A stretch of DNA of 64,000 bases, taken from an uncultured bacterium (GTDB taxonomy: Bacteria > Cyanobacteriota > Vampirovibrionia > Gastranaerophilales > Gastranaerophilaceae). The notes beneath the pieces were generated by a model. The model was not told where the DNA came from. It did not search any database and was given only the letters and a program-made list of their open reading frames with translations. Made by a program: the position numbers and the translations under genes. Position 1 is the stretch's first letter; every line of letters starts with the position of its first letter. Shown here piece after piece: positions 3,566 through 59,243 of this stretch. Location: the NCBI GenBank assembly GCA_949286885.1, contig CASEEG010000125.1, forward strand, positions 123-64,122, in the 5' to 3' direction.

Positions 3566-5545
3566 ATGTTTACGCAAAAAACAAAAAGTATTGTTCAAAA
3601 ATTTACCGTATTACTTATGTTATTCTCTTTTGTCCAGTCTTCATGGGCAGGGATTGACTTTAAAATATCTAATTTGAGTGCAAGCGATAATAAAATTGCG
3701 TATACAAATTTTGACACTCCTGCTAATTATTACAACGACGGCGATGACTCAAATATTTTAAATATTAATAATTATTATCAAGACAAGAGCACTGCGGAGC
3801 CTGTGAATTTAAACGAGAATGTTAGAATTACAAATTCCAAAGCAAAGATTAATTTGTCCTTGCGGGATTCTGATGTTAAACAAGTGCTGAGAATGTTTGC
3901 TCAAAAAGCAGGGCTGAATGTTATATTTCATAACTCTGTTGACGGTAGAGTTACATTAGATCTTGTTAATGTCACCCTCAATGATGCTTTCTTGTTAGTA
4001 TTGAGATCTGCTGAACTTACATATGTTCTGGATGGCAAGAATATTATAGTTGCCTCAAATGCTCAAGGTTCAAAGCTTAGTTTTGCAAAACAGAATTTGA
4101 ATATTATTCCGATTAAATACGAAAGAGCTCAAAATATCGCAGATTTTTTGAATAACAATATTTTTGGTTCAAATATTGCAGGTTTGTCGAACGATAAAAT
4201 TGTTACTTCTAACCCTGCAACAAATGAAATTTTGTTGTTTGGTACTCAGAATGATTATGAAGTTGCGAAAAGAATTGCTCAAAAACTTGACAGAAAGCCC
4301 ATGATTAATACATTCAAAGTAAACCATACTACTCCAAAGGAAATGGCTATGCTTATCTGCAGTACTTTCATCGAGGTAAATAAAAAGGTTTCTACTGAAG
4401 ACGAGGACAGTCTCGCTGATGATGATGACGATGATGATACTGAAGATGATGAAGAAATTAAAAAAGTAAAATTAGGCAGTGGAATAGTCGCTTGTAGAGC
4501 CACAGAAGAAGTTGTCAGAGGTGATTCTGGTAGTTCCAATCCTGTTGGCGGGGTAAATAACGAAGAAAACGCATTAAAAATGTTTGCCTCCGCTCCTTTG
4601 GCAGTAGTCTATTTCCCTGAGCTGGGCACAATAAATGTCAATGGCGGTTCGTATGAACAAGTCAAAATGATAAAAGAATTTATTGAACAAAACGATAAAA
4701 AACAACCGATGGCTTATGTTGAAATGACAGTCGTAGAACTTAATGAAACTGGTTCAAAAGAGTTCGCTAATGAGTGGAGTTTGTGGACACCTTTTATCAG
4801 CTTAGATTTCAATACTGCCAATGGTCTTTCCACAAATGCTAATCATCCTACATTCTTTATGGGTAGAAGTTATGATGTAATAACAAATACTACCGGTGAT
4901 GATGGTGGAGCCACTACAACAAGATACACTGTCGATAAATATCGTGGTGATTCTACGTTGGTTTATCGTCTGAAATATTTAGTTCAAAATGGCAAAGGTC
5001 GAGTTTTAACTAATCCAAAAATCATGGTTACAAATGGTCAGAAATCAATAATAGATATGACAGCCGATTATGTTAAAACTGTTAAATCTGAAATGTTGAC
5101 CACTATTGACAATGCAGGTATTTCAAGAACTTATGAAGTTGGCGATGACGAAGGTCTTAAGATTGAATTAATGCCCTTTATAAGTCCTGACGGTTACGTT
5201 TCGTTAAATATCAAACCAGAGTTTGCTACTATTAAAGAAAGAATCTATGCTCCGGGTCAAAGCAGTGAAGATGAGCTTCAAGCTACCTTACTACAAAGAA
5301 GAGATCTTTCTTTGAATAATATCAGAATTAAAGACGGTGAAACATTAGTACTTGCTGGTTTGATTAAGGAGAATGAAACTCAACAAGTAACAAAAATTCC
5401 TGTTTTAGGCGATCTACCCTTGGTTGGTGTTTTCTTTAGGACTTCTTCTAACCAAAAATCAAAAGAAGAGCTTGTGATAATGATTACTCCTCATATCGTA
5501 TATTCTTCTGAAGATATTGCAAATATCAAGCCTATAGATCTGTAA
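3566..5545 (+). CDS. pilQ: type IV pilus secretin PilQ (GspD/PilQ family)
   Basis: Signal peptide, an N0/STN-like domain (INLSLRDSDVKQVLRMFAQKAGLNVIF...) and a secretin core (VTNGQKS, LVLAGLI, PVLGDLPLVGVFFR). A good SD (TAGGAG) precedes the ATG. Confidence 0.9.
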   Translation: MFTQKTKSIVQKFTVLLMLFSFVQSSWAGIDFKISNLSASDNKIAYTNFDTPANYYNDGDDSNILNINNYYQDKSTAEPVNLNENVRITNSKAKINLSLRDSDVKQVLRMFAQKAGLNVIFHNSVDGRVTLDLVNVTLNDAFLLVLRSAELTYVLDGKNIIVASNAQGSKLSFAKQNLNIIPIKYERAQNIADFLNNNIFGSNIAGLSNDKIVTSNPATNEILLFGTQNDYEVAKRIAQKLDRKPMINTFKVNHTTPKEMAMLICSTFIEVNKKVSTEDEDSLADDDDDDDTEDDEEIKKVKLGSGIVACRATEEVVRGDSGSSNPVGGVNNEENALKMFASAPLAVVYFPELGTINVNGGSYEQVKMIKEFIEQNDKKQPMAYVEMTVVELNETGSKEFANEWSLWTPFISLDFNTANGLSTNANHPTFFMGRSYDVITNTTGDDGGATTTRYTVDKYRGDSTLVYRLKYLVQNGKGRVLTNPKIMVTNGQKSIIDMTADYVKTVKSEMLTTIDNAGISRTYEVGDDEGLKIELMPFISPDGYVSLNIKPEFATIKERIYAPGQSSEDELQATLLQRRDLSLNNIRIKDGETLVLAGLIKENETQQVTKIPVLGDLPLVGVFFRTSSNQKSKEELVIMITPHIVYSSEDIANIKPIDL

Positions 5546-55487: not shown

Positions 55488-55499
55488 AGATTAGGTAAA

Positions 55500-55572
55500 A
55501 GATTTGCCGCGTTAGCTCCGAGTGGAGCAAAAGCGAAACGGAGTCAAAAAAGTAGAGCTTGCTCTACCAACT
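55500..55572 (+). repeat. partial tRNA-Phe 5' duplicate plus an inverted copy of the tRNA D-arm in the tRNA leader
   Basis: 55500-55518 is identical to 55589-55607 (AGATTTGCCGCGTTAGCTC). 55558-55572 (CTTGCTCTACCAACT) is the exact reverse complement of tRNA positions 55608-55622. Confidence 0.8.
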
Positions 55573-55594
55573 CCATTGAAAATTAAATAGATTT

Positions 55595-55667
55595 GCCGCG
55601 TTAGCTCAGTTGGTAGAGCAAGGGACTGAAAATCCCTGTGTCCTTGGTTCGATTCCGAGACGCGGCA
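55595..55667 (+). tRNA. tRNA-Phe (anticodon GAA), CCA not encoded
   Basis: Manual cloverleaf: acceptor GCCGCGT/ACGCGGC, D-arm GCTC-AGTTGGTA-GAGC, anticodon arm AGGGA-CTGAAAA-TCCCT, T-arm CTTGG-TTCGATT-CCGAG, discriminator A. Confidence 0.95.
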
Positions 55668-55683
55668 AATTTTTTGTTTGTTA

Positions 55684-55801
55684 AGCTGTAATTTTACTAT
55701 CAGATTGGTTTGTACGGATACTTTGATTATTTTGGTTTAGGTCGCTGTAATTAAACGACCAGTTTGATTTGTACGGATACTTTGATTATTTTGGTTTAGC
55801 C
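55684..55801 (+). repeat. two tandem 59-bp units sharing an identical 32-bp core
   Basis: TTTGTACGGATACTTTGATTATTTTGGTTTAG occurs at 55708-55739 and 55767-55798. Each unit starts with GCTGTAATT. Confidence 0.9.
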
Positions 55802-55840
55802 CGCTCTGCGAGGGCGTTTTCAGGTCGGAAAATTATGTTT
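55770..55840 (+). repeat. ~70-bp dispersed direct repeat, copy A (partner is 58087-58156)
   Basis: The blocks GTACGGAT, TTTGA, ATTTTG, GAGGGCGTTTTC, GGTCGGAAAATTA and GTTTT occur in the same order in both copies. Confidence 0.8.
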
Positions 55841-55878
55841 TCCAAAAAAATCAAACTGGAAAACTGGACTTTTTCTGG

Positions 55879-55957
55879 ACTGTACGGATAGATTGATTTT
55901 TTCTTAATATAACTGGATTTAGCACCAATTTTGAAGTGTACGGATAATTTGATTATT
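55879..55957 (+). repeat. two further degenerate copies of the GTACGGATA..TTGATT motif
   Basis: CTGTACGGATAGATTGATTTTTT starts at 55879 and GTACGGATAATTTGATTATTT spans 55937-55957, both in the same orientation as the tandem units. Confidence 0.75.
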
Positions 55958-56016
55958 TAGGAATAGTCCAGTTCCGCAAATTTTCACAAAAATATCATAA
56001 GGTTTGAGAATTTGAA

Positions 56017-56073: not shown

Positions 56074-56865
56074 TTAATTATTGCCTATAAAATCAAGCGT
56101 TTCTCCATCATCAGGGATTAACAGATTACCAATATTATTTTTAGTTTTAAATTCTTTTAAATCTTCTCTTGTAACAGAAAGATGGCTGACTGTATCTAAA
56201 TGACTTGCAATTACTTTTGCGTCAGGCGCAGCATCCAAAACATTTTTTACATCTTCAATATTCATAATTATGCGTTCTCCGTTCAAAAGAGTTGCCGCAC
56301 AGGCATTTACTACTATAACTTCAGGCTTGTATTTGCCTAAGACATCTTTTACTTCCTCACACCAAATTGTATCGCCTGCAATATACAATGATTTTTCATT
56401 ATTTGATTTAAAAACAACACCCATTGCATCATAAGGCAAGCCAACAGAATCGCATAACGGTTTTATTATCTCTCTTTTGCCATGTTGAGTTCTTGTTTTG
56501 TATAGGGTTATGCCATTATATTCTGTTCCGGATTCTTGTATAACTTCAACATTTGTAAAACCCTTTGAGATAACGTAGTCTTTATCAACAGAAGATTGAA
56601 CAAAAACTTTTATATTTTTATCCAGAGTTTTTTCAGCAAATTCGTCCCAGTGGTCAGGGTGGATATGAGTGATAATAACTGCATCAACATCAACAATTTT
56701 TTCAATGCCAAAAGGTAATTCCACTCTCGGCTGACGAATTTGTGAGTTTATGGCGCTATCAAACCCGGGCATATAATCTTTTGGCATAAGCCAAGGGTCT
56801 ATTAAAAATTTTGTATTATTATATTCAACTATAATTGTTGCACTTCTTACCTGTGTAATTTTCAT
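56074..56865 (-). CDS. MBL-fold metallo-hydrolase
   Basis: HxHxDH motif (ITHIHPDHWDEF) and downstream His/Asp ligands. It is divergent from an HxlR regulator gene. Confidence 0.88.
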   Translation of the reverse strand: MKITQVRSATIIVEYNNTKFLIDPWLMPKDYMPGFDSAINSQIRQPRVELPFGIEKIVDVDAVIITHIHPDHWDEFAEKTLDKNIKVFVQSSVDKDYVISKGFTNVEVIQESGTEYNGITLYKTRTQHGKREIIKPLCDSVGLPYDAMGVVFKSNNEKSLYIAGDTIWCEEVKDVLGKYKPEVIVVNACAATLLNGERIIMNIEDVKNVLDAAPDAKVIASHLDTVSHLSVTREDLKEFKTKNNIGNLLIPDDGETLDFIGNN

Positions 56866-56972
56866 TTAGATTTCCTCCTTTAATAAAGCAATTTTATACA
56901 TTTATTATCATTTTGACAAGAATGCACTTTTTTGTATAATACTTACCAAAAAGTAAATTAGGGACTTTAATT

Positions 56973-57332
56973 ATGACTAAGCATAAGAAAGATGAATATA
57001 AATGTCCTCTTGAGGCAACAATGGAGATAATCGGCGGGAAATACAAAGGAGTTATAATCGGACACCTTATAAATAAAACATTGAGATATAATGAACTGCA
57101 AAAACTTATTTCTCACGCTACACCCAAAATGCTTATACAACAGTTAAAAGAACTTGAAACAGATGGAATAATCAAACGAAAACTTTATCCCGTAGTGCCG
57201 CCAAAAACTGAATATTCTCTCACTAAAAGAGGTGAAACACTTATTCCTGCAATTATTGAGTTAAACAAGTGGGGAATGAACTATTTAAAAGAAGAAAATA
57301 TACCCTGCGCCTACAAGGGTGATATAGATTAA
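56973..57332 (+). CDS. HxlR-family transcriptional regulator
   Basis: CPLEATMEIIGGKYKGVII..L......RYNELQKLI...TPKMLIQQLKELETDGIIKRKLYPVVPPKTEYSLT is the typical HxlR wHTH. Confidence 0.9.
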   Translation: MTKHKKDEYKCPLEATMEIIGGKYKGVIIGHLINKTLRYNELQKLISHATPKMLIQQLKELETDGIIKRKLYPVVPPKTEYSLTKRGETLIPAIIELNKWGMNYLKEENIPCAYKGDID

Positions 57333-57358: not shown

Positions 57359-57387
57359 TTGACAAATATACCCCTATAGGGTATTAT
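57359..57387 (+). promoter_or_regulatory. sigma-70 promoter upstream of the Cys-rich mini-gene
   Basis: TTGACA (57359-57364), 17-nt spacer, TATTAT (57382-57387). Confidence 0.6.
57368..57384. promoter_or_regulatory. CsoR-type operator 1
   Basis: ATACCCCTATAGGGTAT is a perfect palindrome lying in the -35/-10 spacer. It resembles the B. subtilis copZA operator TACCCTACGGGGGTA. Confidence 0.65.
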
Positions 57388-57401
57388 GTACATGTAGTTA
57401 G

Positions 57402-57418
57402 ATACCCCCTGTGGGTAT
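57402..57418. promoter_or_regulatory. CsoR-type operator 2
   Basis: ATACCCCCTGTGGGTAT is a near-perfect palindrome between the predicted TSS and the SD. Confidence 0.65.
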
Positions 57419-57438
57419 AAAAGAAAAAGGAGGCTAAT

Positions 57439-57558
57439 ATGGCTAAATGTTCAAATCCACATTGCAAATGCGTTAACTGCAAATGCGGAGACAACTGTAC
57501 TTGCACCGAAGACAAATGTAATTGCCCGCCTGAGTGCAATGAACTTTCTAAAAAATAG
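57439..57558 (+). CDS. metallothionein-like cysteine-rich peptide (39 aa, 10 Cys); not in the ORF track
   Basis: AGGAGG SD 7 nt upstream. It reads MAKCSNPHCKCVNCKCGDNCTCTEDKCNCPPECNELSKK to TAG at 57556-57558, with CxC/CxxC spacing as in metallothioneins. Confidence 0.6.
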   Translation: MAKCSNPHCKCVNCKCGDNCTCTEDKCNCPPECNELSKK

Positions 57559-57575
57559 AATATTATTTTGGGATT

Positions 57576-57601
57576 AAGGAGCGGCGTTGCTGCTCCTTTT
57601 T
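57576..57601 (+). terminator. terminator or attenuator hairpin after the Cys-rich gene
   Basis: AAGGAGCGGC-GTT-GCTGCTCCTT (10 pairs including one G-U) followed by TTT. Confidence 0.6.
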
Positions 57602-57616
57602 GTGTATAATGAAAGA

Positions 57617-57925
57617 ATGAAAAAAGAGTTTACAAACGATATGAACATAAAAAAATCAGAAAATCCGAGCCATAAACATGAGATACCTCGCCTAAACAGG
57701 GCAATAGGTCAGTTGGAAGGTATCAAGAAAATGATTGAAGAACAACGATATTGTCCGGATATTATTGTGCAGCTCAAGGCTGTACGTTCAGCAATAAAAC
57801 ATGTCGAAAGCAATATATTGAAAACACATCTTGAAGAATGTGTTACTAAGTCTTTTTCTGATTCTGAAATTGCAAAAGAAAAAATTATGGAAATTAAAAC
57901 TCTGCTTGATAAAATGCAGAGTTAA
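57617..57925 (+). CDS. csoR: CsoR/RcnR-family metal-sensing repressor with the C-H-C ligand signature
   Basis: RLNRAIGQLEGIKKMIEEQRYCPDIIVQLKAVRSAIKHVESNILKTHLEEC has Cys in RYCPD plus the H-x3-C of the CsoR fingerprint. An alternative TTG start lies at 57587. Confidence 0.88.
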   Translation: MKKEFTNDMNIKKSENPSHKHEIPRLNRAIGQLEGIKKMIEEQRYCPDIIVQLKAVRSAIKHVESNILKTHLEECVTKSFSDSEIAKEKIMEIKTLLDKMQS

Positions 57926-58017
57926 CTTATATATTTTAATTTGTTTTTATGACAGTAACTTTATATTCTTAAAATTGCAAATTTGCTCATTTATTTAATA
58001 TTTCAAATTTATGTTGC

Positions 58018-58060
58018 CCAAAATAATCAAACCATGTGGAACAAATAATCAAACCATGTG
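58018..58060 (-). repeat. two adjacent inverted copies (22-bp period) of the TTTGATTATTT motif
   Basis: AAATAATCAAACCATGTG occurs at 58021-58038 and 58043-58060. CCAAAATAATCAAA (58018-58031) is the exact reverse complement of TTTGATTATTTTGG at 55721-55734 and 55780-55793. Confidence 0.8.
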
Positions 58061-58086
58061 TTCTTTTACAACAACCAGCTTGATGG

Positions 58087-58156
58087 GTACGGATGGTTTG
58101 AGAATTTTGCAGACCCCACTCAGTGAGGGCGTTTTCGGGTCGGAAAATTAAGTTTT
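58087..58156 (+). repeat. ~70-bp dispersed direct repeat, copy B (partner is 55770-55840)
   Basis: GTACGGATGGTTTGAGAATTTTG...GAGGGCGTTTTCGGGTCGGAAAATTAAGTTTT. The 26-nt block 58125-58150 differs at one position from 55809-55834. Confidence 0.8.
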
Positions 58157-58160
58157 TTAA

Positions 58161-58203
58161 GATAATCAAACCAAGTGTTTGTTTACATTAATCAAATCAT
58201 GTT
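58161..58203 (-). repeat. two more degenerate inverted motif copies
   Basis: GATAATCAAACCAAGTG (58161-58177) and TTAATCAAATCATGT (58188-58202). Confidence 0.6.
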
Positions 58204-58985: not shown

Positions 58986-59243
58986 ATGTTTAAAAGGGTT
59001 TTTGGCATTATTTTTTGCTTTGTAGTATTTTCGCTATTCTCAAGCGCGGATGCGCATAGTACATTCACTTGGTTTGGGCTAAGAAAGGATAATACGGAAA
59101 TCTTTATTAATACAGGTACGGCACATGAGCCGGATTGTCCGCCGCATAAGCCACATCCCAAAAAACATAAGCCGAAACCGCCAAAGCATGAACCGCATAA
59201 AAAAGGGCCGAAACATCACAAATGTTTCTGGTGGTGCAAATAA
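58986..59243 (+). CDS. secreted His/Pro/Lys-rich small protein
   Basis: Signal peptide MFKRVFGIIFCFVVFSLFSSADA, then HEPDCPPHKPHPKKHKPKPPKHEPHKKGPKHHKCFWWCK. A GGGGGA SD precedes the start. Confidence 0.6.
   Translation: MFKRVFGIIFCFVVFSLFSSADAHSTFTWFGLRKDNTEIFINTGTAHEPDCPPHKPHPKKHKPKPPKHEPHKKGPKHHKCFWWCK

Follow-up and report, generated by a model that had tools for sequence, protein, structure and literature searches.

Reviews of the bacterial metallothioneins recognize two kinds, SmtA/BmtA and MymT, and the Csp copper-storage proteins are unrelated to them. SmtA (BmtA, PF02069), which is found in cyanobacteria and pseudomonads, is encoded beside SmtB, its own metal-sensing repressor. MymT, the copper metallothionein of Mycobacterium tuberculosis, is repressed by RicR, a paralogue of CsoR, while in Bacillus subtilis, Streptomyces lividans and Geobacillus the targets of CsoR are copZA operons, which encode an ATPase and a chaperone. 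In this study we analysed a gene for a 39-residue, cysteine-rich peptide, together with the CsoR-family gene (csoR) that follows it, in a 64,000-nt stretch of DNA (the window) from an uncultured member of the Gastranaerophilaceae (assembly GCA_949286885.1, contig CASEEG010000125.1, positions 123-64,122 of the forward strand). The Gastranaerophilales are non-photosynthetic relatives of the Cyanobacteria, and we know of no cultured representative of the order.

The most probable reading of this locus, to which we would give a likelihood of roughly 80%, is that of a two-gene metal-defence cassette in which a repressor gates the production of a cytosolic thiolate sponge. The checks suggested in a first-pass annotation that can be made by computation all supported this reading. 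It is built on features that can be observed directly, namely the conservation and coding signature of the peptide gene, the exclusive linkage of operator and gene, the family and ligands of the regulator, and the arrangement of promoters and terminator.

The peptide gene and its relatives

The product of the gene, MAKCSNPHCKCVNCKCGDNCTCTEDKCNCPPECNELSKK, contains 10 Cys (26%) and one His, as a first-pass annotation of the window had read it, and no Phe, Trp or Tyr. It has no signal peptide, and the His is not conserved. Low mass, a high Cys content, the absence of aromatic residues and conserved CxC and CxxC spacing are the features by which a metallothionein is recognized, and all of them are found in this peptide. 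Metallothioneins without metal are generally disordered. The Shine-Dalgarno (SD) sequence AGGAGG had also been correctly identified, but it lies 5 nt and not 7 nt from the ATG, and an AGGAG-type SD is kept 5' of the open reading frame (ORF) in related loci.

A protein search with the 39-aa peptide returned seven clusters, and an exhaustive HMMER search of 1.84 billion representatives returned only 6 proteins because ORFs this short are seldom called as genes. The few database copies are labelled “unknown” or “hypothetical protein”, and the majority of copies escape gene calling altogether. Genome DNA was a far richer source of relatives. A scan of 185,579 species genomes identified 105 that encode a relative of the peptide, and 80 loci (numbered here with the prefix L) were taken for analysis, with complete Gastranaerophilales genomes viewed over up to 4 kb of flank around the cassette. 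Candidatus Gastranaerophilales, Melainabacteria or Vampirovibrio account for 48 of the 80 loci, and metagenome-assembled genomes (MAGs) of gut Alphaproteobacteria, with distinct long forms of the peptide, account for 16; there are also 2 loci from Fimbriimonadaceae and 3 from termite-gut Firmicutes, and some of the remaining loci are probably mis-binned. Gastranaerophilales MAGs L013-L019 share 97% identity with the window in the peptide and 99% in the regulator, by which the window can be assigned to this order. An Elusimicrobiota genome with the same cassette and two operators was met outside the peptide scan, while tracing homologues of the regulator.

The core pattern C-x4-C-x-C-x2-C-x-C-x3-C-x-C-x4-C-x-C is kept in 77 of the loci analysed, and relatives are 36 to 72 aa long and contain from 9 to 19 or more Cys. 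The Gastranaerophilales-type forms share nine invariant Cys and differ in the tenth Cys and the His; eight Cys columns are still invariant across the most divergent forms. Pairwise comparison of 54 distinct nucleotide versions over a 26-codon core gave divergences per site of 0.131, 0.141 and 0.514 at codon positions 1, 2 and 3, and in the same 54 versions TGT and TGC are exchanged at each of the nine core Cys codons. Because position 3 diverges about four times as fast as positions 1 and 2 and the Cys codons switch synonymously, the ORF is expected to be translated and under purifying selection on the + strand, and the codon pattern argues that 57439-57558 encodes a real, selected protein. 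A chance ORF and a leader of csoR were both considered and are rejected because of the codon-position data. Conservation of the ORF and of its Cys positions in homologous loci, on which the first-pass annotation had made its reading depend, is thus found with a coding signature in addition.

The alphaproteobacterial versions are typically 53-63 aa (one is 72 aa) with 14-19 Cys, having been expanded by repeats of CxCG[D/E]NCxC, and His recurs in these long peptides. In a lineage represented in four samples (L009-L012; for example L009 2784-2966) the TAG stop of the peptide gene has become AAG, giving a 60-aa product that reads across the terminator hairpin and whose end overlaps the csoR ATG. 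A 109-aa in-frame fusion of peptide and CsoR (P0008) was found on a single contig.

Neither the window peptide nor 14 diverse members reached any Pfam model, and PF02069 gave no match to them even at E up to 10, in agreement with the initial view that the peptide is unlike SmtA/BmtA. Only faint traces were seen, of Metallothio_5 (E = 0.2, in 4 of the 14 members) and Metallothio_6 (E = 2.2, in 2 of the 14). None of the eukaryotic metallothionein families of Pfam (PF00131, PF02067, PF05522 and others) rose above its gathering score, and no metallothionein model of NCBIfam matches the peptide. Comparison with MymT by BLASTP gave 16 bits and 6/20 identities with the Cys unaligned, a result that is only indicative. 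Our literature search found no paper pairing a metallothionein with Melainabacteria, Gastranaerophilales or Vampirovibrionia, and the peptide motifs are in no paper found. The family appears to be undescribed.

The nearest profile match in the PDB is the beta domain of sea-urchin MTA (1QJL), at E = 0.029 with a bias of 25.5. All nine Cys fall in matching columns once a single one-residue gap is allowed, and the two sequences share N, K, G and TE residues; hhalign gave 87% probability over 24 columns. The earlier view that the peptide appears unrelated to described families stands for PF02069 and, indicatively, for MymT, but has to be qualified for this domain, with which the nine-Cys core aligns weakly. 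We take the eukaryotic resemblance as a lead and not as evidence of homology.

A protein with a similar unit was found at L108 6001-7938. This protein, P0009, is 645 aa long and repeats a unit containing CGNPSCKCPTCECGTGCTC 11 times in tandem; its match to the profile of the bacterial peptide has E = 5e-7. Its host contig is 1.4 Mb long with eukaryote-looking neighbours (Ank and CH domains, fragmented gene calls), and P0009 may be a eukaryotic poly-metallothionein built on the motif of the bacterial peptide.

Linkage, operators and the expression of csoR

A CsoR-family gene lies just 3' of the peptide gene and on the same strand in 71 of the 78 genome loci that could be scored, and two of the seven loci without one end at a contig edge. 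The cassette is found in many unrelated neighbourhoods and in at least three phyla, including Elusimicrobiota. One lineage has DnaB-CinA and MgtE_N-like neighbours and another has a metallo-beta-lactamase (MBL)-fold gene with HxlR, and PBECR1; the varied neighbourhoods inspected contained no modification or export genes.

The peptide gene is preceded by the TTGACA-17-TATTAT promoter that had been proposed for it, and two palindromes were confirmed in the sequence (Table 1). In the 64-kb window there are just two occurrences of the form ATACCC-N5-GGGTAT where 0.04 would be expected, and 0 of 100 shuffles reached two. Among 70 distinct upstream regions 62 have at least one TACCC-N5-GGGTA site and 39 have two sites, so that the ORF co-occurs both with csoR and with the palindromes, as the first-pass annotation had suggested should be checked. 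The layout across these regions is fixed, with cTTGACAaata-TACCC-N5-GGGTA-TAAT followed by a second site about 34 nt downstream and then the SD, and TTGAC is at a constant offset from operator 1 in most of them. Alignment of 101 sites gave the count matrix A-T-A-TACCC-N5-GGGTA-T-A, in which the TACCC and GGGTA arms hardly vary and the 5 nt between them change freely, which is the pattern in which a protein-binding palindrome evolves. The 695 kb of DNA collected for the analysis contained no further TACCC-N4-6-GGGTA site and thereby no extra member of the regulon. Six alphaproteobacterial promoters carry a related palindrome instead, for example TATACATATAGGGGGTATATGTATA.

The consensus operator of S. 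lividans CsoR is ATATACCCCTNAGGGGTATAT, in which the TAC-X9-GTA repeat is needed for binding and two tetramers occupy each site (PMC3902906), and the RicR site is TACCCCGCTGGGTA (PMC3944814). Both window palindromes fit the CsoR consensus, with TAC and GTA 9 bp apart, C and G tracts and an N5 centre, and they resemble the RicR site. This match to experimentally defined operators agrees with the type to which the palindromes had first been assigned and supports their designation as predicted CsoR-family operators.

The 10-bp hairpin and T tract reported between the ORF and csoR were recovered both by a terminator scan and by folding, the region having a folding energy of -17.8 kcal/mol (z = -3.3) that 0 of 200 shuffles equalled. 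When each of 65 distinct peptide-csoR spacers was folded separately, 44 were found to contain a stable hairpin and T run, with stem sequences that vary between lineages. A TATAAT element (at least 5/6 matches) lies 6-7 nt before the csoR ATG, with no SD, in 43 of the 65 spacers, 24 of these having a TGn extended -10, and terminator and TATAAT-N6/7-ATG are found together in 40. The gap is 30 nt or less in 16 spacers, which are operonic, mostly alphaproteobacterial and in some cases supplied with an AGGA-type SD. The conserved columns of a 13-sequence spacer alignment are the T run, TATAAT and ATG, while the RNAalifold consensus for the terminator is weak because stem lengths differ.

Three routes to csoR expression had been offered in the first-pass annotation, namely read-through of the terminator, a TTG start at 57587 and a leaderless TATAAT-N6-ATG promoter. 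The leaderless promoter is favoured by its recurrence in the spacers. The TTG is rejected as a start, as it lies inside the hairpin, in a stretch that evolves as a hairpin and not as codons, and the extension it would add is absent in most relatives. The likeliest arrangement in the Gastranaerophilales is a csoR that is read without a leader from a separate promoter free of operators.

The regulator, the proposed circuit and its metal

The regulator matches PF02583 (E = 9e-26), its 90.5 bits exceeding the gathering score of 22.8. Its key residues are His19, R25-L-N-R28 (the RLXR DNA-binding motif), Tyr45, Cys46, His71, Cys75 and Glu92, and RLXR, Tyr45-Cys46, His71, Cys75 and Glu92 are conserved in essentially all of 61 distinct relatives. 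Cys46, His71 and Cys75 align to the ligands of InrS and Geobacillus CsoR and are invariant in full-length relatives except one of uncertain quality, which bears out the Cys...His-x3-Cys set reported at first reading. The CsoR fingerprint x-C-H-C corresponds to Cys36, His61 and Cys65 of the M. tuberculosis protein, with Tyr35 and Glu81 in the second shell (PMC7055735). The second shell of Cu(I)-CsoR is also seen in the window regulator, where Tyr45 precedes Cys46 and Glu92 pairs with Glu98 of InrS, which corresponds to Glu81 of CsoR. Specific to the clade is the invariant His19 in the motif P-x-H-x3-[IL]-x-R-[LI]-N-[RK], often with an extra Cys adjacent to it (PCH, CC); it is five residues off the position that aligns with InrS His21 and RcnR His3. 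The NCBIfam model for RicR orthologues (NF052430) gave 61.6 bits, below its cut-off of 175.

From this architecture we infer repression, induction by metal, binding of metal by the peptide and, more tentatively, the identity of the metal. In the absence of metal, tetramers of the CsoR-family protein would sit on both TACCC-N5-GGGTA operators and keep the 39-aa gene off, with the repressor on operator 1 excluding RNA polymerase from the -10 and spacer, and that on operator 2 acting as a roadblock in the leader. A rise in a thiophilic metal in the cytosol would lead to its binding at Cys46, His71 and Cys75, perhaps with His19, and to release of the repressor from DNA. The peptide would then be made and its nine invariant Cys could wrap several metal ions in a thiolate cluster, so buffering the cell. 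Repressor would be supplied by the constitutive leaderless promoter just past the metallothionein terminator, and on account of this separate promoter it would not be primarily autoregulated, although read-through of the terminator may add some feedback on csoR.

For the window lineage we give Cu(I) somewhat better than even odds. A regulator 58% identical to that of the window, sharing its His motif and operator, is encoded immediately upstream of an ATPase of the CopA type (611 bits with the CopA model; 574 bits with TIGR01511 versus 388 for the Cd type), and another regulator, 59% identical with the same P-x-H motif and operator, lies in an operon that encodes CusF, the regulator, an unknown protein and a CopZ-like protein. 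Among 120 metagenome stretches listed as having the same overlap of operator and -10, a crude sorting of the following genes by motif gave 22 stretches with CsoR-like regulators, 17 with CPC/CPH P1B ATPases, 11 with HMA-like proteins, and none with a CDF or a Cys-rich ORF. The matches listed are mostly classical csoR-copA loci and include no new Gastranaerophilales members of the regulon. The first-pass annotation had held that the metal could not be read from the sequence, and the related regulators, which are wired to copper exporters or to a zinc-type CDF according to lineage, agree with this. InrS has the same ligands as CsoR and yet senses Ni (PMC7055735), so sequence alone cannot assign the metal.

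Several observations weigh against the cassette as we read it, or against the lean towards copper. The 64-kb window contains no copper ATPase, no CopZ and no CDF, hence no copper exporter (a single regular-expression match for “CDF” proved to be a DAHP synthase). Peptide homologues occur without a CsoR gene and without the operator in Fimbriimonadaceae (L081 3589-3927, L086) and in termite-gut Firmicutes (L080, L085, L092), so the pairing of peptide and CsoR is not universal. The likeness of the peptide to the metallothioneins of eukaryotes is slight and arises from composition. The best PDB match of the regulator is the Ni sensor InrS (57.5 bits, E = 1.3e-14; Geobacillus CsoR is about as close, at 53.4 bits), which has the same C-H-C set and an N-terminal His. 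The remainder concern zinc. In nine alphaproteobacterial loci the genes form a tight operon with a CDF, in the order metallothionein-csoR-CDF or metallothionein-CDF-csoR and with gaps of 8-28 nt, and these CDFs are more ZitB-like (165-169 bits) than DmeF-like (90-97 bits). A ZntA/Cd-type ATPase (528 bits versus 375 for the Cu type) lies 2 kb from the L071 cassette, ZnuA and ABC-3 genes adjoin that of L082, and the alphaproteobacterial peptides have recurrent His.

These zinc-related neighbours make Zn(II) or Cd(II) the main alternative, though one that we regard as distinctly the less likely. The circuit would be the same, with metal held by the regulator at a four-ligand Cys2His2 site (Cys46, His71, Cys75 and the clade-wide invariant His19) of a kind that would suit Zn(II), and by the peptide as an M3Cys9 cluster like that of the sea-urchin beta domain. 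The resemblance to 1QJL, a Cd3Cys9 domain, points in the same direction, as does the CsoR regulon of Bradyrhizobium, which is induced by Zn and Cd as well as by Cu (PMC5057107). On the other hand, the CopA and CusF/CopZ copper operons have regulators that are just as closely related and share the His motif and the operator, and the window regulator keeps the Tyr-His-Glu second shell typical of Cu(I) CsoR. The architecture of operator and -10 goes with Cu ATPases and not with CDFs among the metagenome matches listed, and the pair has no linked zinc gene in the lineage of the window. We know of no described Zn-specific sensor in the CsoR family. Should zinc or cadmium be the metal, the CsoR/RcnR family would gain its first zinc-sensing member.

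A bolder version of the Zn(II)/Cd(II) reading is speculative and in our view improbable. It would make the cassette a mobile module of gut bacteria (Vampirovibrionia, Alphaproteobacteria and Elusimicrobiota) whose sensor uses the Cys2His2 site with His19 and whose peptide is a true homologue of the eukaryotic beta-domain-type metallothioneins, in which case the resemblance would reflect transfer between domains of life and not convergence.

An InrS-like sensor of Ni(II) or Co(II), with a peptide that buffers nickel or cobalt, is considerably less likely again. InrS leads the PDB matches and combines the ligand set of CsoR with an N-terminal His, its CsoR/CstR-type inverted repeat overlaps the Pribnow box, the host belongs to a sister lineage of the Cyanobacteria, and DmeF-type CDFs are partners of RcnR-family regulators. 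The invariant His of the window clade is, however, displaced by 5 residues from the InrS His21/RcnR His3 position, Tyr45 is kept here but replaced in InrS, and the linked CDFs score ZitB above DmeF. Thiolate-only metallothioneins are also poor buffers of Ni and Co.

We think it very unlikely that the system is a CstR-like response to reactive sulfur species or oxidants in which the peptide serves as a sacrificial thiol or persulfide buffer. The second-best PDB match of the regulator is a CstR-like structure (7mq1), CstR uses the same type of operator, and a redox/electrophile regulator of the HxlR type and an MBL-fold gene adjoin the cassette; but where 7mq1 has Asn every relative of the window regulator keeps His71, the Tyr/Glu network known from Cu-sensing CsoR is retained, the CxC spacing of the peptide is the classic one of metallothioneins, and related regulators sit on metal exporters. 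An untranslated csoR leader or a secreted disulfide-rich peptide (bacteriocin, toxin or precursor of a ribosomally synthesized and post-translationally modified peptide) might be considered for an ORF so short, seldom called by gene finders, knottin-like in its Cys content and weakly matched to a plant toxin (E = 3.7), but it is hardly credible given the strong codon-position asymmetry and synonymous Cys-codon switching, the conserved SD, the lack of a signal peptide and of modification or export genes in the varied neighbourhoods, and the terminator between the peptide gene and csoR.

Neighbouring genes and comparison with known systems

Table 1. Features of the metallothionein-like/csoR locus and of the adjoining genes (positions in the window)
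Feature	Position	Strand	Basis or remarks
-35 TTGACA	57359-57364	+	Promoter scan 11/12, 17-nt spacer
Operator 1 (predicted), ATACCCCTATAGGGTAT	57368-57384		Fills promoter spacer, 3' arm overlaps -10
-10 TATTAT (TATAAT in most relatives)	57382-57387	+	Promoter scan, upstream-region comparison
Operator 2 (predicted), ATACCCCCTGTGGGTAT	57402-57418		Leader between -10 and SD, about 34 nt 3' of operator 1
SD AGGAGG	57428-57433	+	Read from sequence; 5 nt to ATG
Metallothionein-like gene, 39 aa	57439-57558	+	ORF translation, relatives, coding signature
Intrinsic terminator, T run included	57576-57603	+	Hairpin 57576-57598: 10 pairs (6 G-C), 3-nt loop
-10 TATAAT of putative leaderless csoR promoter	57605-57610	+	6 nt to ATG 57617; no SD, no operator
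CsoR-family repressor (predicted metal-sensing), 102 aa	57617-57925	+	PF02583, PDB alignments, 61 relatives
HxlR-family regulator	56973-57332	+	PF01638, E = 2e-30
MBL-fold protein	56074-56865	-	PF12706; HxHxDH motif; divergent from hxlR

Upstream of the cassette the hxlR gene has a perfect promoter of its own (TTGACA-16-TATAAT, 56913-56940), and together with the divergent MBL-fold gene it probably forms a separate module. Homologues of the MBL-fold gene lie directly after csoR in L052 (a Vampirovibrio MAG; 4437-5264), where the gene overlaps the end of csoR, and in L077 (an alphaproteobacterial MAG; 4492-5280). This recurrent neighbour may be part of the same stress response as the cassette.

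The block of four genes stands beside a tRNA-Phe(GAA) gene (55594-55668), whose initial 22 nt recur at 55497-55518. Two direct copies of a 57-nt repeat (55800-55856 and 58115-58171, 84% identical) bracket exactly the MBL-fold, hxlR, metallothionein and csoR genes; the 26-nt core of the repeat occurs nowhere else in the window, and the block looks like a cassette inserted beside the tRNA gene. Families of short repeats flank it at 55671-55965 and 58005-58194, with a 59-nt unit ending in TGTACGGATAnTTTGATTA and with AATAATCAAACCATGTG in direct and inverted copies. Further downstream, an 85-aa ORF (58986-59243, + strand) with a signal-peptide-like start, a His/Pro/Lys-rich tail (HKPHPKKHKPKPPKHEPHKKGPKHHKCFWWCK) and no Pfam match could encode a secreted metal-binding peptide near the cassette.

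Other observations come from related loci. L024 and L026, binned as “Azospirillum sp. 51_20” and “uncultured Alphaproteobacteria”, contain the Gastranaerophilales-type cassette with 92-95% peptide identity, and L026 has the same MBL-hxlR neighbours and a G+C content of 38%; either mis-binning or recent transfer would account for them. A gene for a FeoA-FeoB fusion follows the cassette directly in L071 (4581-6941) and after the MBL-fold gene in L077, and a Fer2_BFD gene follows csoR in L107, a possible sign that the cassette is connected with iron handling. The homologues that lack csoR have surroundings of their own. A secreted, Cys-rich ORF of 112 aa stands immediately before the peptide homologue in Fimbriimonadaceae, in termite-gut Firmicutes a different conserved upstream element (ACTATACCACATTnAnGTGCGTACTTG) precedes the peptide gene, and in L092 the gene lies between mnmE and a SpoIIID-like gene.

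The peptide is a candidate for a third family of bacterial metallothioneins beyond SmtA/BmtA and MymT, one that is invisible to annotation and yet present in about a hundred species, mostly Gastranaerophilales. It would provide a handle on how these gut bacteria cope with dietary copper or zinc, and an example of a metal sensor and metallothionein able to travel as a self-contained cassette. The regulator clade, which serves Cu exporters in some hosts and Zn-type CDFs in others, suits the study of metal specificity in the CsoR fold. Peptide, promoter and repressor are also small enough to synthesise and might be used as a compact metal biosensor or sequestration part.

When described systems are compared, only the extra His distinguishes the regulator and operator from ordinary CsoR-family components, and the mechanism proposed is a familiar one. 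The CsoR-copZA operons of B. subtilis, S. lividans and Geobacillus share with the window the regulator fold, the Cys-His-Cys ligands, the Tyr/Glu shell, RLXR and a TAC-X9-GTA operator overlapping the -10. They differ in that the predicted target in the window is a metallothionein-like peptide in place of an ATPase and chaperone, and in the invariant N-terminal His of the window clade. InrS, the Ni sensor of Synechocystis, resembles the regulator in its C-H-C ligands, N-terminal His and type of operator, but differs in the position of that His and in the Tyr45 kept here. As in the alphaproteobacterial cassettes, a CsoR/RcnR-family regulator is operonic with a CDF in DmeR-DmeF; there, however, the Z position of DmeR/RcnR is His where the window regulator has Cys, while the CDFs of the cassettes are ZitB-like and their operon includes a metallothionein.

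On the side of the peptide, SmtB-SmtA provides a parallel in its arrangement, a metallothionein gene beside its own metal-sensing repressor, and it is found in Cyanobacteria, relatives of the window host. The window peptide has no PF02069 match, however, and its neighbour belongs to the CsoR family and not to ArsR/SmtB; the zinc-finger-like fold elements and conserved His of SmtA are both absent. The echinoderm MTA beta domain (1QJL) has the nine-Cys pattern in common with the peptide, with weak statistics.

In function the circuit proposed here resembles RicR-MymT of M. tuberculosis. In both, a CsoR-family repressor is paired with a promoter palindrome of the form TACCC-Nx-GGGTA, and the gene behind that promoter, at first missed by annotation, encodes a small cytosolic peptide rich in Cys. 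The logic would be the same, the sponge being derepressed as metal rises, which makes RicR-MymT a precedent for the lean towards copper. In the indicative BLASTP comparison MymT showed no detectable sequence relationship to the window peptide. mymT is unlinked to ricR, in a regulon of five loci in which ricR is autoregulated, whereas the window genes are adjacent, in a mobile cassette with twin operators and with a csoR that would be read from an operator-free leaderless promoter. The hosts differ as well, that of RicR-MymT being an intracellular pathogen and that of the window cassette a gut anaerobe.

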